Virus genome (UHGV): UHGV-1342882
Source of the DNA: a virus
DNA length: 32,827 bases
Strand: one strand, 5' to 3'
Positions 1-29,487 of this stretch are shown here, piece after piece. A model generated the notes under the pieces. It was not told the DNA's origin and searched no databases. It worked only from the letters and a program-made list of their open reading frames with translations. A program made the position numbers and the translations under genes. Positions within the stretch are counted from its first letter, which is position 1. Each line of letters begins with the position of its first letter.

Positions 1-773
1 GCCGCTGGGAGTACAACGTCCAGGAAGGGAAAGAAGATGACGTTGGCAACATCGTACACAAGTACGAGCCGATTCCGGTGCAAAATGTTGAGCCGACGCT
101 GGGTATCGGCGCGCCAACCGACAAAGTGTTTATGATCGAAGAAGCCCAGCGTCCGGGCGAGTATATGACCGCGTTTGAAGATGAGCACGGCACTTACATC
201 ATGAACTCGAAAGATCTGCGCGCCATCGCCCATGTAGAACGCCTGACCAAAATGGGCGTGCATTCGCTGAAAATCGAAGGTCGTACCAAATCTTTCTACT
301 ATTGTGCACGCACCGCACAGGTTTACCGCAAAGCTATCGATGACGCCGCTGCGGGAAAACCGTTCGATACCAGCCTGCTGGAAACTCTGGAAGGTCTGGC
401 GCATCGTGGCTATACCGAAGGTTTCCTGCGTCGTCATACTCACGACGATTATCAGAACTACGAATACGGTTATTCAGTTTCTGACCGCCAGCAGTTTGTT
501 GGTGAGTTTACCGGTGAGCGCAAGGGGGACCTCGCGGCGGTAGCGGTGAAAAATAAATTCTCCGTTGGCGACAGCCTTGAGCTGATGACGCCGCAAGGCA
601 ACATTAATTTTACCCTTGAGCACATGGAAAACGCCAAAGGCGAAGCTATGCCGATAGCACCAGGCGATGGTTATACTGTGTGGCTCCCGGTCCCGCAGGA
701 TCTTGAGCTCAATTACGCGCTGCTGATGCGTAATTTCTCCGGGGAAACCACGCGTAATCCCCACGGTAAGTGA
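1..773 (+). CDS. yegQ: 3' portion of U32-family protein YegQ (RlhA); 5' end lies outside the window
   Basis: Reading frame is open from the window edge through 78..773 (no stop in frame from position 3); translation ends ...RNPHGK; position directly upstream of cyaR matches the E. coli yegQ-cyaR arrangement as I recall it. Confidence 0.7.
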   Translation, partial: RWEYNVQEGKEDDVGNIVHKYEPIPVQNVEPTLGIGAPTDKVFMIEEAQRPGEYMTAFEDEHGTYIMNSKDLRAIAHVERLTKMGVHSLKIEGRTKSFYYCARTAQVYRKAIDDAAAGKPFDTSLLETLEGLAHRGYTEGFLRRHTHDDYQNYEYGYSVSDRQQFVGEFTGERKGDLAAVAVKNKFSVGDSLELMTPQGNINFTLEHMENAKGEAMPIAPGDGYTVWLPVPQDLELNYALLMRNFSGETTRNPHGK

Positions 774-857
774 TTAATTTCGATTATTTTTCCCGGATGG
801 AAAATTCTTAGAAACCGATCACATACAGCTGCATTTATTAAGGTTATCATCCGTTTC

Positions 858-944
858 GCTGAAAAACATAACCCATAAAATGCTAGCTGTACCAGGAACC
901 ACCTCCTTAGCCTGTGTAATCTCCCTTACACGGGCTTATTTTTT
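858..944 (+). ncRNA. cyaR: CyaR (RyeE) Hfq-dependent sRNA; its 3' terminator hairpin overlaps the phage att core
   Basis: Sequence gctgaaaaacataacccataaaatgctagctgtaccaggaaccacctccttagcctgtgtaatctcccttacacgggcttatttttt matches my memory of CyaR; hairpin ctgtgtaa/ttacacgg followed by T-tract. Ends are approximate and not computed. Confidence 0.55.
918..944. repeat. attL core; 27 bp identical to the reverse complement of the P2 att core (aatctcccttacacgggcttatttttt)
   Basis: 923..944 is repeated exactly at 32631..32652; recalled P2 core AAAAAATAAGCCCGTGTAAGGGAGATT. Confidence 0.8.
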
Positions 945-1012
945 GCCTGTAATCTACTGAAATAAATGGATTTATTTCTTACAATGTCCACACATTGACC
1001 ACATCAAACAAA

Positions 1013-1039
1013 CCCCGTCCACAAGGCGGGGTTTTCTTC
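1013..1039 (+). terminator. Rho-independent terminator (hairpin ccccgtc/ggcgggg followed by ttttcttc), likely insulating the prophage from host read-through
   Basis: 7-bp stem with 5-nt loop and T-tract, read directly from sequence. Confidence 0.5.
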
Positions 1040-1109
1040 AAAGGCAAACACGCTAATACTTGAAAGTTATCGCAACCTAAAAGGTTCATACTGCTATGGA
1101 GTTGGAAGC

Positions 1110-2075
1110 ATGAAGCTATACATCATCGGGAATGGGTTTGATCTGCATCACGAACTTGACACGAGCTATTTCTCATTTGGGGATTATCTTCGGAAGAAAG
1201 ATCGAGACATTTACGATCACTTGGTTGAGTTTATGGGATTTACTGACTTACCCCCTTCTCTTTCCGCAGTTGATAAGTCAAAACATTCTCTTTGGTCTGA
1301 TTTCGAAAACAGCTTAGCGGGTCTGGATACAGAGTCGGTGCTCGAAGAGTTTAGCTATCTTTTACCCCAAATTAGCAGCCCCGATTTTCGTGACAGGGAC
1401 TGGAACTCATTATCCATTGAAATGGAACGTATACTAGAAAATTTAACCGAGGGACTTTTAACACAATTCAAGTCATTTATATTGCAGGTTAACTACCCCG
1501 AACTTAATTTAAAAAAAAGATTGCGTATCGATTCTGATTCTATCTTTATCAGTTTTAATTACACTGACACTCTTCAGAAATATTATAGTATTGATGATAG
1601 ACAAATTTTATATATTCATGGGAAAGCATCATCAGATCAACAGTTGATTTTAGGTCATGGTATTGACCCTATCAACTTTGAAGAAAAGGAAGCAGTCCCG
1701 CCCGAAAATGCAACCGATGAAGAACTTGAAGAGTGGCGTCAGTGGATGGCTGATAATTACGATCACTCTTATGAAATGGGAAAGCAGACTATTAATAAAT
1801 ACTTCACTTCTTCTTTTAAGAATACTGAAAAAGTCATTGCTGACAGCGCTAAATTTTTTAAAAATCTCAGTAACGTAGACGAAATCATCATCATCGGCCA
1901 TTCGTTATCATCTGTAGATGTTCCCTACTTTTCTTTTATACATAGCATTGTTAGTAAAAATACGGAATGGATAGCCACCTATTATCAGGAAACTGAGCGT
2001 GAAGCACATCATACAACATTATGTGAGATTGGCATTAAATCTCCCAAACTGATTTCAGTAAGTAAACTTCTATAA
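1110..2075 (+). CDS. AbiH-like abortive infection protein (phage defense cargo)
   Basis: N-terminus MKLYIIGNGFDLHHELDTSYFSFGDYL matches the AbiH family signature as I recall it; AT-rich island; GGAG 8 nt upstream of ATG; lies between attL and the last tail gene. Confidence 0.6.
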   Translation: MKLYIIGNGFDLHHELDTSYFSFGDYLRKKDRDIYDHLVEFMGFTDLPPSLSAVDKSKHSLWSDFENSLAGLDTESVLEEFSYLLPQISSPDFRDRDWNSLSIEMERILENLTEGLLTQFKSFILQVNYPELNLKKRLRIDSDSIFISFNYTDTLQKYYSIDDRQILYIHGKASSDQQLILGHGIDPINFEEKEAVPPENATDEELEEWRQWMADNYDHSYEMGKQTINKYFTSSFKNTEKVIADSAKFFKNLSNVDEIIIIGHSLSSVDVPYFSFIHSIVSKNTEWIATYYQETEREAHHTTLCEIGIKSPKLISVSKLL

Positions 2076-2657
2076 ATAGAACAAAATATCACCCAGAGGG
2101 CGGGGGTTTTTATACGTTCCCTCCCCCTTAGCTAGAGATCCTTTTATCAAAACTTCGTGCATCATTTTGCAAAACCCAAATAAAAGCAAACTAGCCGCCA
2201 GCCCGCGCCGCACAAGGCTTCACAATATCCGCCCCCGAAAACCATCGGATACAACCGAATCATTTTGATCGTCACGGAAACTAAAACGATCCTTTTAAAA
2301 ACATCATGTTATCCAGTCGGTTAGCGACTGGCGACGCGGTGACTTTTGCAAAGTGCTGCAAATCTTTGCGCAGAGTGCAAACGCCCGCAGGATGCAAAAG
2401 CCCAGCAGCGGCGCAGGCTGGCGGGGTGCTTTGCACAAAATTTCTTTTGCAAAATTTTTATGATCCAAACTGCGCAGGCGGGTGCGGTGTAGCGCCGTTT
2501 CCGTCTTGGATCCGCTTCCGTCTGCCTGCTGTCGCTTACGCTGTGGGCCGCTGTTGAACAAACGAAAGAAAGGCCGCACGGTGGCGACCTTTAATATTTG
2601 CGCCTGCTGTGGCGCGTTCTGTGGTGTCTGGTGAGGTGTGCGGTAATGCCGTTTTTG

Positions 2658-4382
2658 TCAGGCTATCAGGGGACCGTATTTGCTTTTCAATGTACCGGTT
2701 TTAGTGGCCGTTGCGCTGAACTGCGCAGCCTGCCCGCTGGCCCCTGTGTTGGGGTGAGTATGTGACGCGGCAGTCTCTGCCAGTTCCCTCACCACGTCCA
2801 GGGTGTCGGTGAGTAGTGTCAGGACGTTAATCTCTTCGCTTCCCAGTTTTACCACCGGGGCAATCAGCTGTTGCGCCTGGGCCACACTTCGGCGGATACC
2901 GCTGATTTTCTCAGTCAGTGCGCCGCTGACGTTTGACGTGACATTCCCTTTCACGTCGTCTGTAACATCGCCCGCGACGTCCCGTTTTGCGTTCCGGCCA
3001 ACACTGACGGAATTGTCCTTGCTGCAGGTTACTGTCAGGTTGCCGGATGTGCCGATACTGTAATCACCCTCGCTGATATGGACCACCGCCCCGGCCAGAA
3101 GAGTGGCCGTGCCAAGCACGGTTGTTTTATCCGTTGCCTGGACCGTAGTTTCACGGACAACCACTTTGCGGATCTCTTCGTCGGTGGTGACTTCGCGCAT
3201 CATGGAGTTTTCGCGGATTGTCTGGTCCGTCTGGCGTTCCCAGTCTCCGGCAACCGTCACGCGCTGCGATACACCATCGCGCTGTTGCTGCAACTGCTCG
3301 CCGGGTTTAACCGCTGGCAGGTTATGACCCTCCGCCATAATCTGGCGCACGAAGGGCTTATCCTGCCGCCCCTCAGTGAACCCGATTTCAACCAGCGTGC
3401 CAGGGGGCGGAAACTGGAACATTCCCGACTCGCTGCCCGCCATTGGTACAGGTAGCGGAACGGCAGAATAAACCGGCGTATTTGCGGCTGGCTTGCCGTA
3501 TTCGTCAAGCAGCTGGAGATCCACGGCATAGCGCGGGCGGAATGGATCGGCAATATTACCCCCTGAAACATCCTCGCTTGGCGCTTCCACCCTGGCGAAT
3601 TTTGGAAGATGCAGGCCGCTTGCCAGCTCCGGGAATGCGTTTTCAATCTGCCGCTGAATGGGTGATTTTTGCAATGGCTGGCCGTTGGCTTTGTTGCGTG
3701 GCTGCCAGGTGATTGTCATGTCGTCGTTATTTAGCCGGACCTGGTTTAACCGCTGGCCGTTCACCTCAGCACCCGGGCGCAGGCTCTGAATCATCGGCAC
3801 AACCATTGAATTGCCGCCCGCCGATGCCTGGCTAAATTCGTGCGGGATCTCTACTGGTTTACCCGCAAAAAGACTGTGCTCAGCAGCACCGACGAAGACA
3901 TCCCCGTCCGGCAGCTGATACCAAAGATAATCCGTCACTGAAAATGCTCGGCCCAGACTGGCAAAAAGCTGGTAGCCCGTGCCGCTGTGCGTAAAGTGGG
4001 GGATCGGTTTATCTGCATAAGCAGCGCCGACCGGCGTTGTGACGGTCAGCCCGCTTTGCTCACTTATCCAGTCAGTAATCTGGCGCAACGTTGGATGCTG
4101 GAAAGAACACGGCCACAATTTATCAAAGATGCCGACCAGCTCACGCACGAACAACCGGCATGTTCCATTATCAGCAGGCTGTGACCGTTCGACGTATCCG
4201 GTAAACCAGCGCAGGACCAGACCATCATAACCAACATCGATACGCACCATTTTGCCGGTGTAATCTGTCTCTGTCCCCGCCGTAATAACCCCCCGACCGC
4301 ACGCGTTCAGCTCCAGCACGATATTGCAGTCAATCAGATGGACCGGATCAGAGGAAAGGTACAGGCGTTTAATTGGTTTCAT
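2658..4382 (-). CDS. Putative baseplate hub / central spike protein (gpD/gpV- or VgrG-like); terminal gene of the tail operon
   Basis: 574 aa; C-terminal half has short repetitive beta-strand-like segments (VTCSKDNSVSVG, VAGDVTDDVKGNVTSNVSG) and an HTHPNTG motif near the C-terminus; position at distal end of late operon. Weak, position-based call. Confidence 0.35.
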   Translation of the reverse strand: MKPIKRLYLSSDPVHLIDCNIVLELNACGRGVITAGTETDYTGKMVRIDVGYDGLVLRWFTGYVERSQPADNGTCRLFVRELVGIFDKLWPCSFQHPTLRQITDWISEQSGLTVTTPVGAAYADKPIPHFTHSGTGYQLFASLGRAFSVTDYLWYQLPDGDVFVGAAEHSLFAGKPVEIPHEFSQASAGGNSMVVPMIQSLRPGAEVNGQRLNQVRLNNDDMTITWQPRNKANGQPLQKSPIQRQIENAFPELASGLHLPKFARVEAPSEDVSGGNIADPFRPRYAVDLQLLDEYGKPAANTPVYSAVPLPVPMAGSESGMFQFPPPGTLVEIGFTEGRQDKPFVRQIMAEGHNLPAVKPGEQLQQQRDGVSQRVTVAGDWERQTDQTIRENSMMREVTTDEEIRKVVVRETTVQATDKTTVLGTATLLAGAVVHISEGDYSIGTSGNLTVTCSKDNSVSVGRNAKRDVAGDVTDDVKGNVTSNVSGALTEKISGIRRSVAQAQQLIAPVVKLGSEEINVLTLLTDTLDVVRELAETAASHTHPNTGASGQAAQFSATATKTGTLKSKYGPLIA

Positions 4383-4389
4383 CGTTTAA

Positions 4390-4932
4390 TTACCCCAGCG
4401 CATCGTTGACCGGCTTTAAGACCTTTTCTTCAAACCAGCTCATTTTGTCGGCTGGTTCATCAGCACCGGCAGCCGGACCCGCGCCCTTTGCCCCTGTTTG
4501 CCTGGTGGTGGCCGTCGCGTTGCCTTTTCTGGCCTGTCGTTTTTCCGGGACGCTGCCTTTTTCACGCAGGGTGAAACTTACCTGCCAGGCAAGGCGATCC
4601 TCCTGCGGTACGGCATCAATCTGACCGGTGAACGTGGCTTCACGAAGGTTGATAGCCGTTGCCGTCGCATTGGCAACACGGTACTTTTTCAGTGCTCCGC
4701 TGGCTTCGGTTGCGGATGCCAGCTGAAAAAGCCGCTGTAAAACGGCTTCATCGTCGAATGTCACCAGACCCGACACGCGCAGCTCTTTGGCCTTGATACC
4801 CTGTTCAGCATTGGCCGTGCTCGATGTCTGGCCCGACTGGTCCTTCTCCTGAAACTGCATGGAAGGTGAAACCAGCATGTTCTGCATGGCGATCCCTTCA
4901 CCATCAAGCGCGAGTAATGCGGTCTGGCTCAT
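4390..4932 (-). CDS. Hypothetical tail/baseplate-associated protein
   Basis: 180-aa ORF within the tail operon, co-oriented and tightly packed; no family recognised. Confidence 0.4.
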   Translation of the reverse strand: MSQTALLALDGEGIAMQNMLVSPSMQFQEKDQSGQTSSTANAEQGIKAKELRVSGLVTFDDEAVLQRLFQLASATEASGALKKYRVANATATAINLREATFTGQIDAVPQEDRLAWQVSFTLREKGSVPEKRQARKGNATATTRQTGAKGAGPAAGADEPADKMSWFEEKVLKPVNDALG

Positions 4933-5674
4933 GTAGCATCCTCCCTAAGTCAGATAACGAATCCCCGATAAACATCATCGCGGCGGTATGCACTGCCGTT
5001 GTTTGCGGGATGCCTTTCAGCAATTCAGCGGCAGCAACGGCATAACTCCCGCTGTAACTGAATGAAAAAATATTCGCACTGGCGGCTTTCAGGTCGTCCA
5101 GTCCCTGGCTGAGTGAGGACAGCAAACCGGCCCGTTCCTGAATAAATCCCGTCACCTGGTTTTTTAGATCTGTTGTGGTGGTACTGACTGCGGCGGCCAG
5201 CTGCGCGGCGGCAACACGCCGGGCATTCAGCGCCAGCCGGTTGGTTGAGACTGATAACGGCGCACTGGCTGGCAATACATCGGCTTTAACCGGCAACTGC
5301 ATTTTTACCGTGCTGAGTTCTGCGGCGGCTGCCGCCATGCGGCTTACCTGCGTAAAAACGGGGGCAGGAAATACGGTGGACAGTTTATTCAGCCCCTGCA
5401 TAAATGCGTCGTGGGTATTCTCCGCTACCATCATGACGATAACATCGCCGCTACCGCCACCGGATAACAGCTTTTTAGCAAGATATCCCATCGCATTGGC
5501 CGGACTAAGATAAGCGCCTGAATCCGTGGACTGCCCCAGCCCATACACCCACGGATGGGCCGGAATGATTGAACAGGATAATGCCGACATATCATCGGCA
5601 ATCCTTATAATTGAATCACGCCACATCGGCAGGTTGCTCCGGCCAGACAATATCTGTCGCTGAGTCGGTATCAA
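4904..5674 (-). CDS. Hypothetical tail-associated protein (start uncertain; alternative starts near 5626 or 5590)
   Basis: 256-aa ORF, Ala/Ser-rich; longest-ORF start overlaps the tail fibre assembly gene by 59 nt, so the true start is probably internal. Confidence 0.4.
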   Translation of the reverse strand: MIPTQRQILSGRSNLPMWRDSIIRIADDMSALSCSIIPAHPWVYGLGQSTDSGAYLSPANAMGYLAKKLLSGGGSGDVIVMMVAENTHDAFMQGLNKLSTVFPAPVFTQVSRMAAAAAELSTVKMQLPVKADVLPASAPLSVSTNRLALNARRVAAAQLAAAVSTTTTDLKNQVTGFIQERAGLLSSLSQGLDDLKAASANIFSFSYSGSYAVAAAELLKGIPQTTAVHTAAMMFIGDSLSDLGRMLHEPDRITRA

Positions 5675-6053
5675 TGCGCATCAGCGATACCCTGTATTCA
5701 CGCCAGGCAGTAAAAAGCGCTTTTTCTGCGTCCGTCGCTTTACCCAGATCAACGGCATCCTGCAAAGGTGCCAGGATATTGCTGGCCGCAGCCATCAGGG
5801 CAGATTTTTGCGTCTCAGCCCTTACGATTGATTCTTCTTCAGAAAGCGGTAGGGGGTCAGAAAGGACCGGCTGACCATATTCATTTGGGATGATGATACG
5901 CCCTGAACTCTTATCAATCAGATACTGATACCAGCGCTCAGAAATCAACAAGGCGTCAGCAGGCCAGCCCAGTTCCGATTTTTCATAATCTGGCTTCAAC
6001 GAAAGGAAGAAAAATCCATTCATGGAAGCACTGTAATAATATTGCTCATCCAT
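5616..6053 (-). CDS. Tail fibre assembly protein (Tfa / gpG-like chaperone)
   Basis: 145 aa directly downstream of the tail fibre gene; N-terminus MDEQYYYSASMNGFF is typical of enterobacterial phage Tfa proteins as I recall. Confidence 0.7.
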   Translation of the reverse strand: MDEQYYYSASMNGFFFLSLKPDYEKSELGWPADALLISERWYQYLIDKSSGRIIIPNEYGQPVLSDPLPLSEEESIVRAETQKSALMAAASNILAPLQDAVDLGKATDAEKALFTAWREYRVSLMRIDTDSATDIVWPEQPADVA

Positions 6054-6056
6054 TTT

Positions 6057-7979
6057 TTAATATCCCGTTGCCAGCCAGAACAAAGGAAAGCCCTGGTTTG
6101 CGTTAAGCCTTGCCGTCGTATTGGAATATTGCGACACCGAACATTCGAGCGTCCCGGCCACATTCGAGGTAAAAGGCGTGACCTGAATATTCCGGCACGC
6201 ATTCGGGAATGCGATCGGGAACGTAATATTTTGATAACCGGACGTCTGGTTCGTGTAACCCCACTGACGGATCCTTCCTGTTGTTCCGTCGCGCTCCCAG
6301 CCGTTTTGCCCCAGGCTGGCCGTATTCTTCAGGTTATAGCGTGCGTCGCTCTCGGCTTTTGTATACGACCCAATCGACCCCGCCGAAATGGTGATGTTTG
6401 CTGTACCGTTAAATGCCACGCCGTTGATGGTGCGGGCGGTTTGCAATTGTGACGCTGAAACCGCATTACCATTTGACGCAAGAGCGCCAATCTCTGCCGG
6501 GGTGGGCTTGTTCGCCACATCATAGGCTTTTGTCCATGCAGACCAGGTGCCACCATAAAGCGTTCGGGCATAACTGCGGGAATTGTTGTACACGCGATAA
6601 ATTTGCGTGATTCCGGCATGCTTAAGGACTTCAAGAGAACCCGCGATCGCCTCCGGGTAATTCGTCCCGGTTTGCGCCTGCGCGTTCGCGGGCTGGTAAT
6701 AAAGCCCTGGCGTGGTGTAGTTGTTCAGATTTGCTGCATTACCAATCCCTTCGGCCAACCGAAAAATATCAGACGGGAAAAGATCGATATTACTCGATAG
6801 CGCTCGACCGTTAACCGTTCGTGTTGAGGGCACGCGACTATTAGCATTATCGTTAGCCGCCTTAACTGCTTTCGGCGTCGCGGCGACGGCTTCCGACTCG
6901 CTGTCGGTGGCGCTGCTCAGTTGAATAATCCCTTTCTGCGCTGTCGTAGCGTCCTGCGCGGTGTATTTACCTTTCGCCAGGTCATAGGTTGCCTTAACCG
7001 CTTTCGGCGTTGCCGCTACTTCTTCAGAATCGCTATCCGTGGCGCTGCTTAATTGCGTGAATCCCTTTGCGGTTGTGGTGGCGTCCGGGTGGTTGCGTGA
7101 TTGTTCGTGTTTTTTCAGCGCATCACTGGCCTGTTGCTCGTTCAGCGTACCTTTTGGACGAAGATCGGTAATGACGCCGTTTGCGTCGATACTCGCAAGG
7201 GCAAACACGAAATGTTGCTCACCATTCTGCACGTAATCTTTAAGGTCGGCGGCAACCGTGATTTTGCTTTGTACCGCCCAAATGCTCGTAAGCGTTCCCA
7301 TCCACGCCACATCCAGCCAGACCTTAACCGGCTTTGTTGACACGGTAATATTCTGGTTTGCGGCCAACACTGAACGCAGACCGGCAAGGTATCCAGTACC
7401 TTTAGTGACAAAATACTGGGTGCCTGTTTTCGCGACCAGATAACCCGCATCAAAGAACGACGCCGCACCATACAGATCGATATTTTCGCGGCGCTGGCGT
7501 TCATCCATTGCCGCCAGACGGGCAGTAAAATCAATCTGCCATGTCTCTGCCGGGGTGGTAATTTCCGTTGCTTCCCTGGCTCCGCTGTATTCCATCAGCA
7601 TGGAACGGACCAGAACGTTTCCCTGCTGGCCGTTCGCATTTTTGATTTTACGCTGGGTCGGGGCATGAATAATCATCGCCAGTGTACCGGTGGCTTTATT
7701 TGCCAGACCGATCCAGTTGAAATCAAAATCACCCACATCTGCCCCCATCGTGACGGAATAAACGACAGAGTTTTCATTCACAACACCGGATTTACTCACC
7801 ACCTGACGATAAACAATTTTATCCGCTGCGGGTGCTGTCTCGGTATTATCAATCGGCTTATCAGCATCCAGCCCCGGAATATACGCGAAAATAAATTCAT
7901 CCAGCGTGACGGGCTGATTATTAATAGCCTGCTGGGCTTTCCACTCTGTAAATGCTTTTGTAATAACAGCCTGTGACAT
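6057..7979 (-). CDS. Tail fibre protein
   Basis: 640 aa; contains the collar segment HEQSRNHPDATTTAKGFTQLSSATDSDSEEVAATPKAVKATYDLAKGKYTAQDATTAQKG that closely resembles the P2 gpH segment I recall; internal tandem duplication of the QLSSATDS..VAATPKAVKA motif. Confidence 0.8.
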   Translation of the reverse strand: MSQAVITKAFTEWKAQQAINNQPVTLDEFIFAYIPGLDADKPIDNTETAPAADKIVYRQVVSKSGVVNENSVVYSVTMGADVGDFDFNWIGLANKATGTLAMIIHAPTQRKIKNANGQQGNVLVRSMLMEYSGAREATEITTPAETWQIDFTARLAAMDERQRRENIDLYGAASFFDAGYLVAKTGTQYFVTKGTGYLAGLRSVLAANQNITVSTKPVKVWLDVAWMGTLTSIWAVQSKITVAADLKDYVQNGEQHFVFALASIDANGVITDLRPKGTLNEQQASDALKKHEQSRNHPDATTTAKGFTQLSSATDSDSEEVAATPKAVKATYDLAKGKYTAQDATTAQKGIIQLSSATDSESEAVAATPKAVKAANDNANSRVPSTRTVNGRALSSNIDLFPSDIFRLAEGIGNAANLNNYTTPGLYYQPANAQAQTGTNYPEAIAGSLEVLKHAGITQIYRVYNNSRSYARTLYGGTWSAWTKAYDVANKPTPAEIGALASNGNAVSASQLQTARTINGVAFNGTANITISAGSIGSYTKAESDARYNLKNTASLGQNGWERDGTTGRIRQWGYTNQTSGYQNITFPIAFPNACRNIQVTPFTSNVAGTLECSVSQYSNTTARLNANQGFPLFWLATGY

Positions 7980-7990
7980 AGGTTTTTCCT

Positions 7991-8590
7991 CTACTTCAAA
8001 CTTGCGCTGTATGTTATTTGGGGCTGGTTATTCACATCACTCAGGGTGGCATAACAGCAAATATATTCCCCCTGATACCAGCCAATATTGATATTCAGTG
8101 GCAGGGATGTGATCACTTCAAACTGGTAACGGCGGCATGTACGCCCATATTTACGGATAATTTCCAGCAGGAGATCGCCATTTTCCGCAATCTGACTATT
8201 TGTCACCCGAACGACAATCACATCCCAGTCGAGTCCGTCCTGCCGTTCCAGTAATTCAACATAACCAATCCCCAGTCGCTCAAAAATGGCAATAAAGCCC
8301 GCCACCTCTCCGGCCTGCTGCGCATTGATAAATGCGTAGCTCACCCGTTTGCGGAAGATGTCGAGCGGCTCCCCCTTAAACCGATCGATATCGCGTTCCC
8401 AGGCAATCAGGTTTAACAGCGGTTCGGGGCAGACCAGCGGGTCAAACTGCTTTAACGGCCAGGAGATCCACCCGTACACCTGCGACCAGAACTTCACGCA
8501 GGCCCGCAGCAGCCTGGCGGGGTCGCCTTTGTTCAGCCACGACGGCAATTTCAGACCGGCAAGCAACTTTGAAAACTCAGTCATTCTCAA
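7991..8590 (-). CDS. Baseplate/tail protein (gpI-like, DUF2313-type)
   Basis: 199 aa immediately downstream of the baseplate J-like gene and upstream of the tail fibre; call is mainly positional. Confidence 0.5.
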   Translation of the reverse strand: MRMTEFSKLLAGLKLPSWLNKGDPARLLRACVKFWSQVYGWISWPLKQFDPLVCPEPLLNLIAWERDIDRFKGEPLDIFRKRVSYAFINAQQAGEVAGFIAIFERLGIGYVELLERQDGLDWDVIVVRVTNSQIAENGDLLLEIIRKYGRTCRRYQFEVITSLPLNINIGWYQGEYICCYATLSDVNNQPQITYSASLK

Positions 8591-9761
8591 TCTCCACCGT
8601 TAACCCTGACAGGCGCGGGACCGACAGTTCGCTGACAATATCCGTCAGTGAAAAATGCAGTGAATCGACAACCGGAAAAGCCTTGTGGATCTCGCGGCCC
8701 AGATTCGAAAAGGAATAGCGCGAATAGGGCTGCGTCTTCTTAACGTCGTAATTGGCGTTCTCGCGAAACGCGCAACGAATCAGGTCGGTAATACCTGTTT
8801 TTAACGCGCTCAGGTCTTCCGCTTCCATGTTTTCCACGCTTTTGACGTATACCGTTACCGCCAGGGTGTGGCTGGTTTCCGGCATGGCATAACACTGCAA
8901 ATCATCACCGTGTCCGTGGTGGCCCTGGGTATTCACATAGTCGTTAACCGCATCAATAAAGGGTTGTGATATTTCGCCACTGTCCAGCAACAGGTAAGCA
9001 TTTGCCGTACCCGGTCCCCGTGGGGCATCGTGCAAAAAGTAAATGCGATCAACGCTCAGGCCCAGCACGCTGGCAATCATGCTGCGGTAAATAGCGTCAG
9101 AGTGATAATTCCCCACCAGATTAAACTGGTTGCGGGTACGGTCGCGCAGCTCGTCGTCGCTTTCCTCGTTGGCTCCCGGCGAAATCAGCCATTCGTCCTC
9201 ATTGACCGCGCTGGCAATCCCGGCCACCGCAACGGGTAAAATCCGGTAATAGCCTGGCGCAAGGTTATAGCCGCTGCCGGTGCCGGTCGCCGTGACGGTA
9301 ACCAGCCCGCTTTCAACCCCGGCAGGCAGCGTCACGTCTTCATTCACCGCCAGCACGTAAACCACGCCGTTAATGCGCTCGGTTTGCACCAGTGTTCCGG
9401 CAGGCACGACGACCACATCCGCCGCGTTCAGCTTGTAGAACCGCAGCACGCCAGCGGCAGCGCTGGCCGGTTTAGGCACGATATGAACCGCCCAGGCCAG
9501 CAGGCGCAGCATGGGACCGGTGGCCGTCGCAACAAACATATTGCGTAGAACCACATCGATCATCGCCGCCCGCAGCCATAACACCGGCGTGGTGACAATC
9601 TTCGAAATCAGCCGCCAGAAAGGCGACATCCTCGACGTGTTTGTGACGAACCCTTCCGCCTGCACGGTGGCTTTAAACGCTGCCTTAATTTCGGCCTCTG
9701 TCGCAGGCATCCCGCTGTCATTCAGTACCTTTTCAAAATCAACGTCGGGTTTCTCAGTCAT
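8577..9761 (-). CDS. Baseplate J-like protein (gpJ / Mu gp47 family)
   Basis: 394 aa; size and position between wedge protein and gpI-like gene; resembles baseplate J family by recall. Confidence 0.65.
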   Translation of the reverse strand: MTEKPDVDFEKVLNDSGMPATEAEIKAAFKATVQAEGFVTNTSRMSPFWRLISKIVTTPVLWLRAAMIDVVLRNMFVATATGPMLRLLAWAVHIVPKPASAAAGVLRFYKLNAADVVVVPAGTLVQTERINGVVYVLAVNEDVTLPAGVESGLVTVTATGTGSGYNLAPGYYRILPVAVAGIASAVNEDEWLISPGANEESDDELRDRTRNQFNLVGNYHSDAIYRSMIASVLGLSVDRIYFLHDAPRGPGTANAYLLLDSGEISQPFIDAVNDYVNTQGHHGHGDDLQCYAMPETSHTLAVTVYVKSVENMEAEDLSALKTGITDLIRCAFRENANYDVKKTQPYSRYSFSNLGREIHKAFPVVDSLHFSLTDIVSELSVPRLSGLTVEIEND

Positions 9762-10089
9762 AGTTAACCTCTGTACTGACAGGGCCGAAATCGTAGGTTT
9801 CCGCCGTGATATACAACCTCGAAAGGGTTTCTTCGGTGATCACTATGGTTCCTGGGACCAGACGTTCGTCGCTTTCCACCAGTAAGGACAGTTGCGTCAG
9901 CACGTCACCGCGCATTGTCGGGCTGCGTTCACCGATCAGGCGGGTGGTGATACCGCTTTCCAGAATGCTGTGAATAATGTCCTGGGTGATGCTGTCGCGG
10001 TTATCGCAACGGCGCGGCTCGTTGCCGCTATCCAGCGTGAAATCGCCGTCAGTGATCAAAAGGTCGATGTATAACGGTTCGGTACTCAT
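9754..10089 (-). CDS. Baseplate wedge protein (gpW/gp25-like)
   Basis: 111 aa; segment SITQDIIHSILESGITTRLIGERSPTMRGDVL follows the same pattern as the P2 gpW segment I recall (ISQSIGDILRTPVGSRVMRRDYGSLL). Confidence 0.45.
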   Translation of the reverse strand: MSTEPLYIDLLITDGDFTLDSGNEPRRCDNRDSITQDIIHSILESGITTRLIGERSPTMRGDVLTQLSLLVESDERLVPGTIVITEETLSRLYITAETYDFGPVSTEVNYD

Positions 10090-12194
10090 CCTGCGTTAAG
10101 CTCCTGCCATTCAGCCAGCTGGGCCGGGGTGATTCCATTGGGGGCGTTGATGTAGGTATCGCCCCACGTTTTACGGTTATCAACAGCGGTTTTGCTGTCG
10201 CTTTTAACCTGACTCATCAGGCCGCCGCGTGGGATGCCTGCATTAATTCGGTTCCCCGTCAGCACGGACGGGCTGTTCAGCTTCGATGAACCTGCAGCAC
10301 TGTCAGGAATGACCGCATTTGCCGGAACGGCAGCCGGTGGCGAAACGGTTTTTAGGTCGATGTTTACGCCGGGGATCTTGTTTAACTTCTCAACAATCCA
10401 GTTATAGGTAGACGCAAAGGTATTTTTGAGGACGTCAAAAAGTTTGCTGAATACCCCGCCGATGGTTTGTGCGAACCCTTCAAAGGTGGCAAGCGGGGAA
10501 AGACCGGCAAAGAAATCAACCACCACGGCCCAGCCGTCTGTGATGGACTGCCAGACCTGCGCAAACACCTGGCCTACCTGTTCAGCGACCGACATCACCC
10601 AGGCAAAAGCCGACGTATCCATGATTGCTGCTGCCAGTTCTTCCCAGTGGGTGATGACGTACCAGACCCCCACGGCCAGAAGTGCCAGCCCGGCAACGAT
10701 CAGGGTGATCGGACTCATCAGGAGTTGCATTGCCGCCCCGGCAAACATGGTCGCCGCACCGTAAACCCGCATGGCAATGGCTCCGGCCTTTAACGCGATA
10801 TTCCATGCAGCAAGCGCGATGCGGCAGACGCCCGTCCACAGCGCCAGTAATTTTGACTGGATCCACAATGCAGCCAGACCGATGCGCGTCGTCAGCAGGG
10901 ACGGACGCAACAGGTTGAGCGTCCATAACAGGAGTTTCCATGCCCCGCCCAGCACTTTTGCAATTGCGGCCAGCCCTGTCATGGTGAAGCCAAAGACCCC
11001 CATCACGATATTGACCGCCGCCCCGGCCAGCCCGAAGGACAACACGCCCAGGGTGATGTAACCCAGCCAGCGGGCAATATTCGGGAACATATCCAGCCAG
11101 CGGGCAAATTTTGCCCCCACGTCGGCAATACGGTTCATCAGCGGCGACAGAATAGGGATCAGCGTGTTACCAATCGCCACGCGAATGGCAAAGAATGTCG
11201 CTTTGATACGTTTCCACGGCTCAGCCATTCGTTCGGCCATTTCCTGGGCGCGTTTCATCCCGTCATTTCGGCCCAGCTCGGTGATGCTGCGATTTAATTT
11301 ATCCTGCTGACCGTACAGCTTTTTGATAACGTCAGCACCACCACCGAACGCGGAATCCAGCGCCTGTTGTGCCTTGACGTTCCCTTCAATGCTCTGCCCG
11401 TATTTGTTCTGGAGTTTTTGCAGAATGTCGCCCATCGGCAGCATTTTTCCGGTGGCATCGACAAAGCTCATACCCAGCTTTTCAGCGGCAGCCGGGGCGC
11501 TGCGTAAAAACTGCTCGTAGATCCCGCTGGCCTCAGTACCCAGCGTGCGCGAAAGCGTACCCAGGACGGCGAACTGTTCATCCAGGCTAACGCCAAAGTC
11601 AGCACCGGCGCTTTTCGTCCCCTCGATAAGCTCCTGCATGGTCTGCATTTTCACGCCGAAGTTTTGCACCATGTACGCCGTTTTCCCTGCCAGCTCTTCG
11701 GCAAAACGCACATGGCCCAGACTGGACAACTCCGCGTTGAAGCGTGACGCCATCGCGCCGATGTATTCTCCTGCCTCTTCGCCGCTGGCCTTGACGCCTG
11801 CCGCCAGGGTATTGGCCGCGATGGTGACGCGGGGCAGGTCCAGATCGGACAGACCCGCCATTGCGCCTTTCATCGCGTAGCTTGACCGGACCACATCAAC
11901 GGCCCCTTTGCCGTAGCGCATACTGAATCGCATGGCTTCGCCGGACAGACGCTTCAACGCGTCCTCTGCCACGCCTTTGGAACCTACTTCTGCAAGTGCG
12001 GCGTTCATCTCATACGCCGGCCCCACCACGCCCGCGATGGACTGTGCCACGCCCCAGACAGCCGCCGCACCGATCCCGATTTTTGTAAAAGACGCCTGCG
12101 ATTTTTCGGCAAAGCCGGACAGCGAAGACTGGGCCGTCTTTAATGGCCGCGTCAGCTTATCGATCAGGCTCAGGGTAAAATCCAGGTGGCTCAT
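10086..12194 (-). CDS. Tail tape measure protein
   Basis: 702 aa, Ala/Gly-rich with hydrophobic membrane-like segments in the C-terminal half; directly downstream of the frameshifted chaperone pair. Confidence 0.75.
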   Translation of the reverse strand: MSHLDFTLSLIDKLTRPLKTAQSSLSGFAEKSQASFTKIGIGAAAVWGVAQSIAGVVGPAYEMNAALAEVGSKGVAEDALKRLSGEAMRFSMRYGKGAVDVVRSSYAMKGAMAGLSDLDLPRVTIAANTLAAGVKASGEEAGEYIGAMASRFNAELSSLGHVRFAEELAGKTAYMVQNFGVKMQTMQELIEGTKSAGADFGVSLDEQFAVLGTLSRTLGTEASGIYEQFLRSAPAAAEKLGMSFVDATGKMLPMGDILQKLQNKYGQSIEGNVKAQQALDSAFGGGADVIKKLYGQQDKLNRSITELGRNDGMKRAQEMAERMAEPWKRIKATFFAIRVAIGNTLIPILSPLMNRIADVGAKFARWLDMFPNIARWLGYITLGVLSFGLAGAAVNIVMGVFGFTMTGLAAIAKVLGGAWKLLLWTLNLLRPSLLTTRIGLAALWIQSKLLALWTGVCRIALAAWNIALKAGAIAMRVYGAATMFAGAAMQLLMSPITLIVAGLALLAVGVWYVITHWEELAAAIMDTSAFAWVMSVAEQVGQVFAQVWQSITDGWAVVVDFFAGLSPLATFEGFAQTIGGVFSKLFDVLKNTFASTYNWIVEKLNKIPGVNIDLKTVSPPAAVPANAVIPDSAAGSSKLNSPSVLTGNRINAGIPRGGLMSQVKSDSKTAVDNRKTWGDTYINAPNGITPAQLAEWQELNAG

Positions 12195-12195
12195 A

Positions 12196-12653
12196 TCAGT
12201 TTCCGTTAAATGCGATTGCTATCCCTTCCGCCGTCTTACTGGCGCGGGTCTGGGCGAAATATTCATCCAGCCACAGGGCGCGGGCGATGCTTTCTTCGTC
12301 GTCGGCTTCGTGCGGGAGGTAGTAGCGGCGCAGGGCAAGGTATTGCTCAAGCGCATTTGTGCGAATGGCCGCTACCCGCGCCATCAGTTTTTTACTTCGA
12401 TCTCAAGTTTGGGGGAGTAAATCTCGTTAACTTTCTCGACGATCTGCATTTCGCAACCCGGATAATCTTCCATCAGCTTGTTAAGCGCCTCTTTACACTC
12501 GGCATCAACAATGCGGCCCAGATACGTCACCATAGGGGCAACCTTATTGGTCATGGTCATTTCGTTAAGCAGGTTGTTAAACGCGGTTTTATTCGGCTCA
12601 AAGCTCAGATTTACGCCCGCCACGGTCATGGCGATTTTTTTCGATTTGCTCAT
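12196..12653 (-). CDS. Tail assembly chaperone fusion product (gpE+E'-like) made by programmed -1 ribosomal frameshift at 12387..12393
   Basis: Slippery heptamer A AAA AAC (mRNA sense) at 12387..12393; the -1 frame continues as ...KKLMARVAAIRTN... which is the 62-aa ORF 12196..12384. Confidence 0.55.
12384..12653 (-). CDS. Tail assembly chaperone (gpE-like)
   Basis: 89-aa ORF immediately upstream of the tape measure gene, ending ...IEVKN with an A AAA AAC slippery heptamer at its 3' end. Confidence 0.6.
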   Translation of the reverse strand: MSKSKKIAMTVAGVNLSFEPNKTAFNNLLNEMTMTNKVAPMVTYLGRIVDAECKEALNKLMEDYPGCEMQIVEKVNEIYSPKLEIEVKN

Positions 12654-12946
12654 TGTGCTAATTCCTTACGTTGTCGAATGATGCCCACCAGGGCGTTATG
12701 TCGGGCGGCGCAGTCGGTATACATCAGCCGGTAGGCTTTCAGCGCCGCGTCAAAGTCATTTCCGGTCGGTCCGGCCAGACGTGGCAGCGTGACCGGGCAA
12801 AGTGTCAGCTGGTTTTCCTGATAATTTTCGTTCGGCTTGATCTGCACTTTCGTTGAACAACCGGACGTAATCATCAGAAGCGCAAACGTTGCTAAAAACC
12901 GGCTTAATGGTTTCCGTGCGGATAACCCGTTCCGTGTGAATTTCAT
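12650..12946 (-). CDS. Outer-membrane spanin (Rz1/LysC-like lipoprotein); starts inside the Rz gene in another frame and extends past its stop
   Basis: Signal peptide with lipobox-like ITSGC followed by a short mature region; overlap architecture like P2 lysB/lysC. True start may be internal. Confidence 0.5.
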   Translation of the reverse strand: MKFTRNGLSARKPLSRFLATFALLMITSGCSTKVQIKPNENYQENQLTLCPVTLPRLAGPTGNDFDAALKAYRLMYTDCAARHNALVGIIRQRKELAQ

Positions 12947-13139
12947 TGGCCCTCAGCTCCGCGAGTTTTGCTTCCAGCGCTTCACCAGACTGCTGCGTCA
13001 CCTCAACAACAATCTGGCGCGTTTGTTCTGCCGCTTCACTGGCAGCGAGTTTCAGCTTTGCGTCGTGCCAGTCATGCGCCTGCCAGCCCGCTGACATCGC
13101 AGCGACCAGAATCAGCAAAAGACCCAGCAAATTGCGCAT
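12756..13139 (-). CDS. Inner-membrane spanin (Rz/LysB-like)
   Basis: 127 aa with N-terminal hydrophobic segment (LLGLLLILVAAM) and coiled-coil-like charged remainder; directly downstream of the endolysin. Confidence 0.6.
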   Translation of the reverse strand: MRNLLGLLLILVAAMSAGWQAHDWHDAKLKLAASEAAEQTRQIVVEVTQQSGEALEAKLAELRANEIHTERVIRTETIKPVFSNVCASDDYVRLFNESADQAERKLSGKPADTLPGHAATSGRTDRK

Positions 13140-13477
13140 CAGCGAACCCCGTTATGCTCAAGACTGAAATGGTTGCCGTCCGGCTTACTGAAACGTCCAC
13201 CCCACGATCCGCCGATAGATTCCCAGTATTCGCCCAGGGGGCGGTATGCGGCGCTGTCGGTCTGGTATTCGCCGTTAATAAACAGGTTAAAATCCACCGC
13301 GAGGCGCTGGGTATGCAGGCTGTTAGCAATGCCACTCCCTTTTTTTGCGTTAAGCGCGGCCTGTTCCGGCGTGCGGTACGCTTCGCCAAACGTCAGGCGA
13401 TAGCCCTTTTCTTCGGCAAAATGAATCAGGTTGGCGATCATCACCGTGAAAAGTTGCTGTTTTTCACTCAGTTTCAT
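13139..13477 (-). CDS. Endolysin, M15-family peptidoglycan peptidase
   Basis: 112 aa with His...Asp...His metal-site pattern (SLHTQRLAVDFNLF ... GNHFSLEH) typical of M15 peptidases; sits between holin and spanins. Confidence 0.7.
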   Translation of the reverse strand: MKLSEKQQLFTVMIANLIHFAEEKGYRLTFGEAYRTPEQAALNAKKGSGIANSLHTQRLAVDFNLFINGEYQTDSAAYRPLGEYWESIGGSWGGRFSKPDGNHFSLEHNGVR

Positions 13478-13775
13478 TGCGCTTGCTCCCCCATCGCTTG
13501 ATATACATATCCAGGCAGCGCTTTAACCCGGCCTCAATAAACGCACTTCCCAGAATGCCTAGGGCGCAGGCCAGCCCAATGACGACCAGTTCCGGCATAT
13601 CGGGGAATTTCAGCAGCGGGATTGCGGCCAGTGGTGCGACCGCAGATCCCAGAATCATCCGCCCGACCAGCAGACGGGTTGTGATTCGCTCATTGCTGAC
13701 CATCAGTTGCCCCAGGCCGATCACGGCCCCGATAAGCAACAGCTTTTCAAGCAGTGACGTTTCTCCGTTCATCAT
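13464..13775 (-). CDS. Holin
   Basis: 103 aa with about three hydrophobic transmembrane segments and a charged C-terminus (KRWGSKRNETE); immediately upstream of the endolysin. Confidence 0.6.
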   Translation of the reverse strand: MMNGETSLLEKLLLIGAVIGLGQLMVSNERITTRLLVGRMILGSAVAPLAAIPLLKFPDMPELVVIGLACALGILGSAFIEAGLKRCLDMYIKRWGSKRNETE

Positions 13776-13779
13776 CGTG

Positions 13780-14235
13780 TCAGCCTTTCAGATCGCGAGT
13801 GTCACGGGCTGACAGGTACGGAACGCCGTCAATCGCGACAAAGTCCGGGCTTGTCACCATGAATTTAATTTTCTTCGTGGTTTTGCTGGCCTCGTTGGGG
13901 TTGATGTTGACGATGTCGGACAGCGTCGGAACGCAGCCAAACACCTCGATTTTTTCTTCGTCGTCCCCGGCGTTGGCGTAGAACAAAAAGTCCTTTGCCG
14001 GAATGGCTCGCCAGGAACCTGCGGCACGGGCAACGGCGGTAAACTTTTTAAAGTTCTGGGAATCGACTTCGACTTCCACATCCGCCGAAACTGACCCTTT
14101 CGTGTGGCCGTTCGGGATGCCACGCGACTGCGCAACGGCGCTGTTGTCCGTAATGGTGACGGTGGCGTTTTCGACGTGAATCATGATGCTGTCGTAGTTC
14201 ACATCGAACGATCCGCCGCTAATACGTTCAGTCAT
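13780..14235 (-). CDS. Tail tube protein
   Basis: 151-aa ORF directly downstream of the sheath gene; size and position typical of contractile-tail tube proteins. Confidence 0.55.
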   Translation of the reverse strand: MTERISGGSFDVNYDSIMIHVENATVTITDNSAVAQSRGIPNGHTKGSVSADVEVEVDSQNFKKFTAVARAAGSWRAIPAKDFLFYANAGDDEEKIEVFGCVPTLSDIVNINPNEASKTTKKIKFMVTSPDFVAIDGVPYLSARDTRDLKG

Positions 14236-14238
14236 TGA

Positions 14239-15381
14239 TTAGCTCTCCAGTGAGGTGTCCAGTTCGATGCTGACGCTGATTTCTTTCGCGCTCTCATACG
14301 GTCGAACCACAAGGTAAATCTGTACCGCTTCGCTACTGGTCCAGGTGATGGTGATGTCACCGTCCTTTGGTGGCTTCACTTCGCCCGGAAATTCGACGCC
14401 ATTGATCTGGGTTGAAATCGCCATTTCACGCAGCGGCTTGCCGAAATAGGTTTCATGCGCGGCAATGCTGCCCGGTGTGCTGTTCAGCGAACGATCGGCA
14501 ATTTTGGGGATAGCACGCAGACGGACGCGGCGGGATGCTTTATCAACCACGCGCACGTTTTCAATGACCTGATAATCGCCGCCTTCAACGTCCAGGGTGC
14601 GACCGTCAGCCCAGTAGATGCCGTCATAGTCGTGATACCACATCGGCACGCTGTAGCGGTTCGCCTGCAGGGACTGCAACACGGACAGATCAATTTCGGC
14701 TCCCGTCCCGTCAACCGGCAGTGTGTCACGCCCCAGCGCGGTGACTGCGCCAGTTGCAACGCGGGCGGGGCTGTCTGCCACCGTCACCGAACGGTTACAC
14801 AAGCGACCGGCCAGGACGCCGGGTTCATTGCCCCACAGACGCGGGACCAGTTGCACACCCGGTGACGCAATACCGTCCTGGAGTTGTGCCAGGCGCGTCA
14901 CATAATCGGCCCATGCTTCGCCCTGTTTTGGCCCGCCTATCGCAAGGCCAAACCAGATAAATCGCCCATAATTAGCCTGCAAGGTGATACGCATTTCCAT
15001 TGCGCGGTTGATGGTTGCCACTTCGTCGGTATCAAATACCAGGAAAACCCCTTCCACGGATGCCACGCTCTGGGCCATCTTGACCGCGTTCATCCAGTCT
15101 TCGTCTGGTTTATAGCCCTCGGCTTCCTTGTCTGGCTCTGCCAGCACATGCACGTAAGCAAACCAGTTCTGACCGGCGTTATTGGCCGCTGCGGCCACCA
15201 TATTTTTTAACGGGCTGTCTTTGTCGCCCAGGGCTTTATCCAGATCGCTGTCGGTATTCAGCGACTGGGTTTTCCCGATGTTAGTGTCGCCGTAACCCAC
15301 AAAGAGGATGACGCGCTCGACGTCGTTCGTTGTGCCGTTGAAGCGGTTTTTCTGACTGACGTTGACATTCGGCCAGGTCAT
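14239..15381 (-). CDS. Tail sheath protein (non-P2 type, DUF2586-like)
   Basis: 380-aa ORF upstream of the tube gene; does not resemble the P2 FI sequence I recall; resembles Mu-type sheath-like proteins. Confidence 0.55.
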   Translation of the reverse strand: MTWPNVNVSQKNRFNGTTNDVERVILFVGYGDTNIGKTQSLNTDSDLDKALGDKDSPLKNMVAAAANNAGQNWFAYVHVLAEPDKEAEGYKPDEDWMNAVKMAQSVASVEGVFLVFDTDEVATINRAMEMRITLQANYGRFIWFGLAIGGPKQGEAWADYVTRLAQLQDGIASPGVQLVPRLWGNEPGVLAGRLCNRSVTVADSPARVATGAVTALGRDTLPVDGTGAEIDLSVLQSLQANRYSVPMWYHDYDGIYWADGRTLDVEGGDYQVIENVRVVDKASRRVRLRAIPKIADRSLNSTPGSIAAHETYFGKPLREMAISTQINGVEFPGEVKPPKDGDITITWTSSEAVQIYLVVRPYESAKEISVSIELDTSLES

Positions 15382-15383
15382 TT

Positions 15384-16079
15384 TTACCCCCTGATTTGCT
15401 GCGCGTTGATGTCCCAGCCGAAGCCGATTGCCTGCATTTGCCGCGCAATAATTTGGTTAAACTCATCGTCGCTCACCCCCAGAAAAACGCGCCCCGGAAT
15501 ATCAATGGTCCATGCGCGTTTTGAGGGTGTGCCTTTCAGTTTTCGAATCAGTAATCCCGCCTGGGCCATGCTCATGGTTTCCATGATTTGCCTGCTGGAC
15601 GGCTTAACCCAGCGCTTGCCCTTGCGGGTTTTGTAGCCCAGCGCCCGCAGACGCTTGGCCTGTCGCGGTAGCGCGGGTTTGTCGGCCTGCGGCTTGCGCG
15701 GGGCGTTACTGGCTTTCATCTGGATCCGTGCGCCGTCCTGCTGGGCCGCACCGACCAGACCCGCCGCAATGGGCTTCGTCCCGTTCCGGTAGTTCCCGCC
15801 CTTGAGGTAAATTCTTACCCCCTGAATCTCCGGCATTTCACGCACGGCCAGCAGTTTGGGCAGCCCTTTTAGCATCTTCCCTTTGCCACGCTTACGCGGC
15901 TCCCACGGCGTACCGTCCGGGGCCGCCTGCTGGCGCTGGTGACGCTTTGCCGCTGCAACAATGCCCAGCTTTGCAATACGCCATAAAAGGCGCTGGCGCT
16001 TACGCGGGGGAAGGTCAGCTTTTGCCAGCGTTTCCCGCATCTGCTTTAGCTGTTGCTGGTTCAGCTCCCCACGGATCAC
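15384..16079 (-). CDS. Virion morphogenesis / tail completion protein (gpS-like)
   Basis: 231 aa, basic, with an internally repeated segment (KGLPKLLAVREMPEIQGVRIYLKG / KGTPSKRAWTIDIPGRVFLGVSD); position between head and tail genes. Confidence 0.5.
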   Translation of the reverse strand: MIRGELNQQQLKQMRETLAKADLPPRKRQRLLWRIAKLGIVAAAKRHQRQQAAPDGTPWEPRKRGKGKMLKGLPKLLAVREMPEIQGVRIYLKGGNYRNGTKPIAAGLVGAAQQDGARIQMKASNAPRKPQADKPALPRQAKRLRALGYKTRKGKRWVKPSSRQIMETMSMAQAGLLIRKLKGTPSKRAWTIDIPGRVFLGVSDDEFNQIIARQMQAIGFGWDINAQQIRG

Positions 16080-16552
16080 GACGCGTCACCACGCTGGACA
16101 ATAAATTCCAGTTGCGACGCCTCCCAGATTTCGGGGTTTACGATGTCCCATTTCTTACCCTTGAAGGGGATCGGCCCTTTTTCCACTTCGCGCAGGACCA
16201 GCGGATCAACCAGCGGGACAACCACATCCAGAATGCATGACCCTTCGTCGTCGAACTCCGGGTCCACGGTGGGATCGGCTAACTTCAGCTCGTCGCGCAG
16301 CTCGTTGGCGAATTCATCCACCCAGGCCAGCACCAGGGCATAAATCAGCCCCGGCGAATATTTGCGGTAGGGGAAGTCATCCCACGACAAACGGGCGGTA
16401 TAAGTCAGCACCCCGATCCGGCGCTGGTTGTTCCCCAGCGCTTTGGCGTTGCGTACCAGCTCGCAATCCTCCATTGAACTGGAAAACATCTGCATGGCAT
16501 CAGGCGGCAGATTTGCCGTAATAAACGCCGTCAGGCTTTCAAGCTGGCTCAT
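16076..16552 (-). CDS. Tail completion protein (gpR-like)
   Basis: 158 aa; shares a VLAW motif and similar size with the P2 gpR sequence I recall; position after the head completion gene. Confidence 0.45.
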   Translation of the reverse strand: MSQLESLTAFITANLPPDAMQMFSSSMEDCELVRNAKALGNNQRRIGVLTYTARLSWDDFPYRKYSPGLIYALVLAWVDEFANELRDELKLADPTVDPEFDDEGSCILDVVVPLVDPLVLREVEKGPIPFKGKKWDIVNPEIWEASQLEFIVQRGDAS

Positions 16553-17082: not shown

Positions 17083-17124
17083 GGTTGATGCCTCCCCCGC
17101 GCCCGTCCCGGCTAGCGGGAGTCT

Positions 17125-17826: not shown

Positions 17827-17828
17827 TT

Positions 17829-18851: not shown

Positions 18852-18879
18852 AATCTTTTATTCCTGAAAAGAATGGCTG

Positions 18880-23329: not shown

Positions 23330-23332
23330 ATT

Positions 23333-29478: not shown

Positions 29479-29487
29479 CTCCCCGAA

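Follow-up and report, generated by a model that had tools for sequence, protein, structure and literature searches.

Integration at the 3' end of RNA genes has been described for several temperate phages, including phage 186 in tRNA-Ile, Fels-2 and SopE-phi in ssrA, and Salmonella prophages at ryeB/sdsR (PMC3448106, PMC3603311, PMC3333887). For the E. coli small RNA gene cyaR (ryeE), the passage on this gene in Bobay et al. (PMC3603311) describes ryeE as [quoted passage not shown], and Table 2 of the E. coli W genome paper (PMC3032704) gives "cyaR RNA" as the insertion site of P2-type elements, with Wphi2 (P2) in W, ogr-D' in K-12 and P2*B in B as its occupants. In the RefSeq annotation of K-12, a "cryptic prophage PR-X", a P2 remnant, begins at 2167183, a position 18 nt inside cyaR, and includes ogrK and the pseudogene yegZ; by our own comparison, the left end of PR-X has all 27 bp of the core and the right end a truncated one. 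The GenBank record of P2 itself (AF063097, features 24293-24496) annotates Int arm, Cox, core, IHF and Int arm sites together with a terminator, and the annotated 27-bp attP core, AATCTCCCTTACACGGGCTTATTTTTT, is identical to the end of cyaR. The use of cyaR as a P2-family attachment site in E. coli is already documented, and the finding reported here is correct but ordinary; going by the passage quoted above, citations of the gene as a phage target go back to 2001, and the case carries little weight as a discovery. Its practical value lies in annotation, namely base-level prophage borders and an intact CyaR in the lysogen. Additionally, it documents a mosaic member of the Peduoviridae with an Irrigatiovirus-like body, a P2-type int/att module directed to cyaR, and defence-type cargo.

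The DNA analysed is a stretch of 32,827 nt (UHGV virus genome UHGV-1342882), hereafter the window. Its left end carries the following host features:

1..773, + strand: 3' part of host yegQ/trhP, the same as yegQ/trhP in the annotations of E. coli E2865 and K-12, with the stop codon ending at 773
808..850, + strand: cyaR promoter region, read from the sequence and the same as in K-12, with CRP-like half-sites TTAGA-N6-TCACA (808-823) and a -10 hexamer TATCAT (845-850)
858..944, + strand: cyaR (ryeE) small RNA gene, intact, by Rfam match and comparison with K-12
909..944, + strand: CyaR intrinsic terminator, by fold and terminator scan, with an 11-bp stem (909-919/926-936), a 6-nt loop (920-925) and a U-tract (937-944)

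Stretch 858-944 is cyaR, complete and unaltered in sequence. Window positions 856-941 on the + strand matched the Rfam family CyaR_RyeE (RF00112), the sole Rfam family detected in the window, at 100.7 bits (gathering score 47, E 3.2e-19, model positions 1-85 of 85), and 858-944 was identical at 87 of 87 positions to the K-12 ncRNA gene cyaR (b4438, NC_000913 2167114-2167200). The first-pass annotation, made from the letters alone, had recognised this sequence as CyaR directly downstream of yegQ, and had proposed an alignment with a cyaR reference as a check; the alignment bears out the identity, and the order yegQ/trhP followed by cyaR is the one annotated in both E2865 and K-12. The 300 nt 5' of cyaR, including the end of yegQ/trhP, are also the same as in K-12 and E2865. 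The promoter region at 808-850 we take to be CRP-dependent, an assignment that comes from published knowledge of CyaR.

The CyaR terminator hairpin folds at -15.9 kcal/mol (z -6.4), the terminator scan calls the same hairpin, and the U-tail at 937-944, UAUUUUUU, which is the Hfq-binding 3' end, follows it directly, as is expected of a Rho-independent terminator. This terminator overlaps one of two copies of a direct repeat that bound the phage DNA. The features concerned, none of which was assigned a strand except where given, are:

918..944: left att core of 27 bp, from the repeat search and the comparison with P2; the 27 bp are the annotated P2 attP core, and the 22 bp at 923-944 are the prophage's own core
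945..32630: prophage body, Peduoviridae, Irrigatiovirus-like, by nucleotide, PHROG and Pfam matches
32626..32652: right att core, AAACGCCCTTACACGGGCTTATTTTTT, from the repeat search; the 22 bp at 32631-32652 equal the left copy, and the same variant is found elsewhere
32653..32827: host flank toward yegR (- strand, stop-codon end at 32811), contiguous with the core in empty sites

The 22-bp sequence CCCTTACACGGGCTTATTTTTT occurs exactly twice in the window, at 923-944 and at 32631-32652, and none of 100 shuffles of the window yielded a match even when up to 3 mismatches were permitted. With 5 bp added on the left, the copies still match at 25 of 27 positions (918-944, AATCTCCC…, against 32626-32652, AAACGCCC…). 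Since the hairpin occupies 909-936 and the U-tract 937-944, the repeat spans the last 3 loop bases, the whole 3' half-stem and the U-tract of the CyaR terminator. The right-hand copy has a different 5' flank (AAACG, preceded by phage DNA, against AATCT on the left) and forms a 4-bp GCCC/GGGC stem only, without the 5' half-stem of the CyaR terminator; no terminator was called by the scan at this copy. Both observations on which the earlier reading rested, that the left core coincides with the terminator hairpin and T-tract and that the right-end copy carries only the 3' part behind another flank, are thus confirmed at the level of single bases.

To represent the empty site, window positions 501-944 were joined to 32653-32827, and the resulting 619-nt sequence was searched against 5426 complete E. 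coli genomes. It was 100% identical to the unbroken yegQ-cyaR-yegR interval of many strains, and the site was contiguous in 4573 of the genomes (80% or more of the joined query at a single location). In the empty site of E2865, the right flank begins at the base immediately 3' of the core. Because the joined flanks match empty sites, the window holds a base-exact insertion of 31,708 bp with a 22-bp duplication flanking it, and the prophage borders are 945-32652 or, equivalently, 923-32630. The core is present in the related empty sites, as the earlier reading required of an uninfected locus. A P2-type int is joined to yegR in the same manner in 805 of the 5426 genomes (~15%), so occupied cyaR sites are common; the left junction with an AbiH gene is common to 19 complete E. 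coli genomes. Within the window, no tRNA or tmRNA was found that could serve as another target.

The integrase end of the prophage and the phage arm at the left junction contain the genes and sites that a P2-type integration system would use:

30702..30977, - strand: cox-like excisionase/repressor gene (phrog_272, E 7e-45)
31094..31393, + strand: C-type immunity repressor gene (phrog_147, E 3e-40)
31539..32546, + strand: P2-type tyrosine integrase gene, 335 aa (Pfam Int_N and Phage_integrase; phrog_1)
32519..32537, unstranded: two direct Int arm-type repeats TGTCCACA (32519-32526 and 32530-32537), the P' arm in GenBank P2 naming, overlapping the int 3' end and aligning with the P2 Int P' arm site 24470-24496
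32547..32625, unstranded: putative counterpart of the P2 Cox-binding stretch between arm site and core, from alignment with P2 feature 24399-24472
945..1035, unstranded: phage arm at the left junction, the P arm in GenBank P2 naming, collinear with the protein_bind features of P2 AF063097
958-976, unstranded: candidate IHF-like site in the P arm, in a region well conserved with P2
985-992 and 995-1004, unstranded: predicted Int arm-type sites TGTCCACA and TTGACCACAT in the P arm, aligned with P2
1010-1035, - strand: stem-loop terminator in the P arm, from a terminator-like scan hit

The integrase is 86.6% identical in amino acid sequence to P2 Int over 334 of 335 residues, and P2 was its top match among 50,697 phage records. 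An attP was deduced by placing the core between the phage DNA that precedes it at the right junction and the phage DNA that follows it at the left junction, and it contains …CTGAAAAACGCCCTTACACGGGCTTATTTTTTGCCTGTAATC… at the predicted junction. Aligned with the P2 attP region, it is ~76% identical in nucleotide sequence over 340 bp, with the sites in the same order; the Cox-box region aligns with that of P2 but is divergent. The motif TGTCCACA has only 3 copies in the window, every one of them in the two arms, and these arm repeats fit the published P2-type arm consensus tgTGGaCa (PMC3448106). A search of IMG/VR for the predicted 30-mer attP junction returned 0 matches, and the 27-mer core variant returned 7 matches there, all of them right junctions in prophage form with host flank and none a free attP; since the viral collection holds no free-phage form with this exact core variant, the attP described here is deduced and not observed. 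The integrase and the layout collinear with P2 agree with the earlier assignment of the element to the P2 family. The same holds for its statement that the locus is a known P2 attachment region, given the P2 core at 918-944, PR-X in K-12, the listing in PMC3032704 and the quoted passage of PMC3603311.

Taken together, we consider it close to certain (probability about 0.95) that a temperate Peduoviridae phage integrated here by Int-mediated site-specific recombination between its attP core and an attB made of the 3' end of host cyaR. The proposed course of events is as follows. A heterobivalent tyrosine integrase would bind the core together with the arm-type repeats of the TGTCCACA family on both arms, assisted in integration by IHF at a site on one arm, and a Cox-type directionality factor would reverse the reaction in excision. 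Strand exchange within the 22-bp identity would leave a complete, unaltered cyaR at the left junction, and the displaced partial copy, lacking the 5' half-stem, would stay at the right junction beside int. The core segment CCCTTACACGGG is a candidate for the stretch that holds the Int cleavage sites; the crossover probably lay in or near TTACAC, between CCC and GGG, which are probably the two Int core half-sites. The left junction retains the host bases at 920 (T) and 922 (T), and the right junction retains the phage bases A and G. Because the left junction holds the host bases at 920 and 922, the exchange would have taken place to the right of 922, and because it would thus lie inside the 22-bp identity, phage DNA can make up no more than 22 nt of cyaR. 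The exact crossover point is not readable from identical sequence, and hence neither is the number of phage-derived nucleotides among the last 22. The claim in the first-pass annotation that the prophage supplies the 3' end of cyaR therefore stands in part: up to 22 nt are possibly phage-derived and phage DNA abuts the last T, but the origin of these nucleotides is not readable, their bases being those of the host. Overall, the observation is confirmed and its interpretation is supported with these qualifications. We would like to note that, instead of arising by a fresh integration, the lysogenic locus may have reached this strain by descent or through homologous recombination.

The body of the prophage encodes a terminase, portal, scaffold, P2-family capsid, sheath, tape measure, baseplate, tail fibre and holin/endolysin, as well as a replication endonuclease, a Dam methylase, Ogr/Delta, Cox, C and Int. 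Each of the capsid-module proteins Q, P, M, O and N has a PHROG match, the module has P2-like order and orientation (divergent Q-P and O-N-M), and the tail is of the contractile type. The nearest phages of the body are the Salmonella phages SW5, SW3 and SI7 (classified as Peduoviridae; Irrigatiovirus), at 94-96% nucleotide identity. Megablast of the body against P2 gave no match, which places it outside the species Peduovirus P2. By sequence comparison, the phage is not P2 proper: a P2-type lysogeny module is joined to a Peduoviridae body of the Irrigatiovirus-like type.

Several genes outside these modules were also noted. An AbiH-family abortive-infection gene (PF14253, 210 bits; PADLOC AbiH) at 1110-2075 on the + strand adjoins the left att arm in an AT-rich region (GC 0.40). 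The ~580 bp that follow up to the baseplate gene (2076-2657) contain no convincing ORF; a 91-aa ORF at 2304-2579 had no PHROG match. Two further cargo genes with a GC of 0.34 lie at 23333-24995 on the - strand; they occupy the position of the P2 old/tin hotspot, with the portal/Ogr genes on one side and the replication gene on the other. One encodes a GmrSD_N-domain protein (PADLOC NsnA / PD-T4-2_A-like, E 1.6e-66) and the other a HEPN protein (RiboL-PSP-HEPN), and the pair is likely an anti-phage system.

Three other readings of the locus were weighed against site-specific integration by a phage with a working system. The one that survives best, although we still think it unlikely, is that the element is a fixed defective prophage like PR-X of K-12, its att repeats being fossils. 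Decayed elements are frequent at the cyaR locus, K-12 having kept only ogrK and yegZ, and a related lysogen, E. coli 2011C-4251, has an annotated IS3 family transposase in place of the C/cox switch region; in the window, however, full-length open frames are present for int, C, cox, the replication endonuclease, terminase, portal and capsid as well as for the tail and lysis genes, both cores are intact with Int arm-type repeats on both arms, and the body is ~96% identical to phages isolated as virions. We therefore prefer to see the window as carrying a prophage that is presumably still able to excise. Strain 2011C-4251 (NZ_CP027388; 345-1558 of our locus L005) holds the closest relative of the prophage in a complete genome, and there the IS3 lies between the replication genes and the int end; that copy is probably defective.

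Far less probable is the reading in which integration alters CyaR, leaving it truncated, extended or differently terminated, with a changed regulon in the lysogen. The promoter, seed region, terminator and U-tail of CyaR, including the 11-bp stem and the 8-nt U-tract, are all the same as in K-12 and in empty sites, and the RNA sequence is unchanged in the lysogen; only the DNA past the final T differs, from ATGCATAAGCC in the empty site to GCCTGTAATCT in the lysogen. This difference is one of two points in favour of an effect. The other is that abiH is the next gene on the same strand, 165 nt downstream of cyaR, and therefore any read-through from cyaR would enter phage DNA. Nevertheless, the CyaR hairpin is a strong one, a second stem-loop (1010-1035) precedes abiH, and the frequency of occupied sites given above also speaks against a disturbed CyaR. 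When the region was searched for an abiH promoter or for read-through from cyaR, one promoter-like match was found (957-985), which is no excess over the mean of 1.2 in shuffles. We infer that CyaR expression is unaffected by integration, in keeping with the intact CyaR that strand exchange within the core would leave. Lastly, that the 22-bp repeat is a coincidence, the island having come by transposition or illegitimate recombination with cyaR merely nearby, has next to no probability: beyond the shortness of the repeat nothing speaks for it, and it is refuted already by the junction that is base-exact against the empty site, besides the absence of shuffle matches, the identity of the repeat with the annotated P2 attP core, the Int arm-type sites to either side of the core, spaced as expected, and the same type of junction in hundreds of genomes.

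The host flank of the empty site has features of its own. The segment 17-47 nt past the core, CTGGTCACCGTCTTCCATTGACCACATCGA, is followed by AATCTCCCTT, a 10-nt sequence that is the start of the P2 core; the stretch concerned is window 32670-32712 (1962-2004 of our locus L001 in E2865). Compared with the P2 annotated arm-type Int-binding site, the 30-nt segment CTGGTCACCGTCTTCCATTGACCACATCGA scored 38, against 15.0 +/- 2.3 for shuffles, of which 0 of 2000 reached that score. A tentative reading, which we hold to be possible but would not favour, is that the "empty" cyaR attB of E. coli is itself the fossil junction of an earlier P2-type prophage. If so, an ancient P2-type phage would have left an arm behind, the cyaR 3' end and its flank would be partly phage-built, and the site used by present phages would owe its shape to an earlier one; this could also explain why the core of laboratory P2 matches cyaR at 27 of 27 positions, against 22 for the prophage lineage sampled here. 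YegR was considered as ancient phage cargo, as it gave a full-length match to phrog_21109 (E 1e-71), but every phage record found to encode it is prophage-derived and runs from int and the core into the host flank with yegR, and a Pfam search of YegR found nothing. The fossil idea is not strengthened by these matches, because they represent host flank in prophage-derived records.

Variants of the core were also surveyed in other genomes. The phage-side core start AAACG was found in 4 other lysogens and in 7 IMG/VR prophage contigs, which is to say in all those sampled; the int-yegR junctions of the 4 lysogens are 85-95% identical in nucleotide sequence to that of the window, and the sample leans to relatives of this int. 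The host-like AATCT, giving 27 of 27 matches with attB, is present in the free-phage genomes of laboratory P2 (our locus L004, 521-547) and 9W. The CyaR terminator loop, AATCTCCCTT, does not vary among ~43 other Enterobacterales species save for a 1-nt deletion in one (L081), and the stem co-varies. The exact 27-bp P2 core occurs in cyaR of Enterobacter hormaechei and of two Kluyvera genomes. In Citrobacter sp. Awk 4 (L111, - strand, ~4908-5110), cyaR has the terminator variant TTACGCAGGCGTATTTTTTT, and directly past it lie a P2-type IHF-like site, the arm motifs TGTCCACA…TGACCACAT and a terminator. Because this Citrobacter cyaR variant precedes P2-type arm motifs, P2-type elements target cyaR outside E. 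coli as well, with a matching core.

Among described systems, P2, with its remnant PR-X at cyaR in K-12, is the closest to this prophage in its manner of integration. Prophage and P2 have the same host target, the last 27 bp of cyaR being the P2 attP core, and they share one order of elements: the int 3' end with arm repeats, the (in the prophage putative) Cox region, the core, the (likewise putative) IHF region, arm repeats and a terminator. They are also alike in the integrase (86.6% amino acid identity) and in having Cox-type and C-type regulators. The prophage differs from P2 at 2 of 27 positions of the phage-side core (AAACG against AATCT), and its identity with attB is therefore 22 bp and not 27; the attP region as a whole is only ~76% identical. 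We looked for ogr next to attP, where P2 has it, and found the AbiH gene there instead; the gene for the Ogr/Delta zinc-finger late activator (22985-23302, + strand) adjoins the portal gene. The virion genes, moreover, come from another genus than those of P2.

With SW5, SW3 and SI7 (Irrigatiovirus) the relationship is reversed. Most of the structural, lysis and replication genes are ~94-96% identical in nucleotide sequence and stand in the same order, but the int/att module shows only a distant resemblance (~76% in an 89-nt stretch of int, core and arms being unmatched), and the core motif ACACGGGC was absent from SI7 when both strands were searched. Since the body is Irrigatiovirus-like and the int region of SI7 is distant and without the core, the prophage is a mosaic, retargeted to cyaR by exchange of this module. 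These phages also differ in cargo, AbiH and the GmrSD_N/HEPN pair being carried by the prophage.

Finally, the locus can be set beside phages that integrate into the 3' ends of tRNA, tmRNA and other small RNA genes. There, too, the 3' end of a small structured RNA gene is duplicated in the attP, so that integration reconstitutes the gene, and the target includes a hairpin. In tRNA-type targets the structure concerned is a tRNA-like fold, whereas here it is the terminator of an Hfq-dependent small RNA, and the shared segment is 22 bp long as against the 50-110 nt of the tRNA-Met-integrating prophages PhiESP and PhiKPN (PMC3448106).
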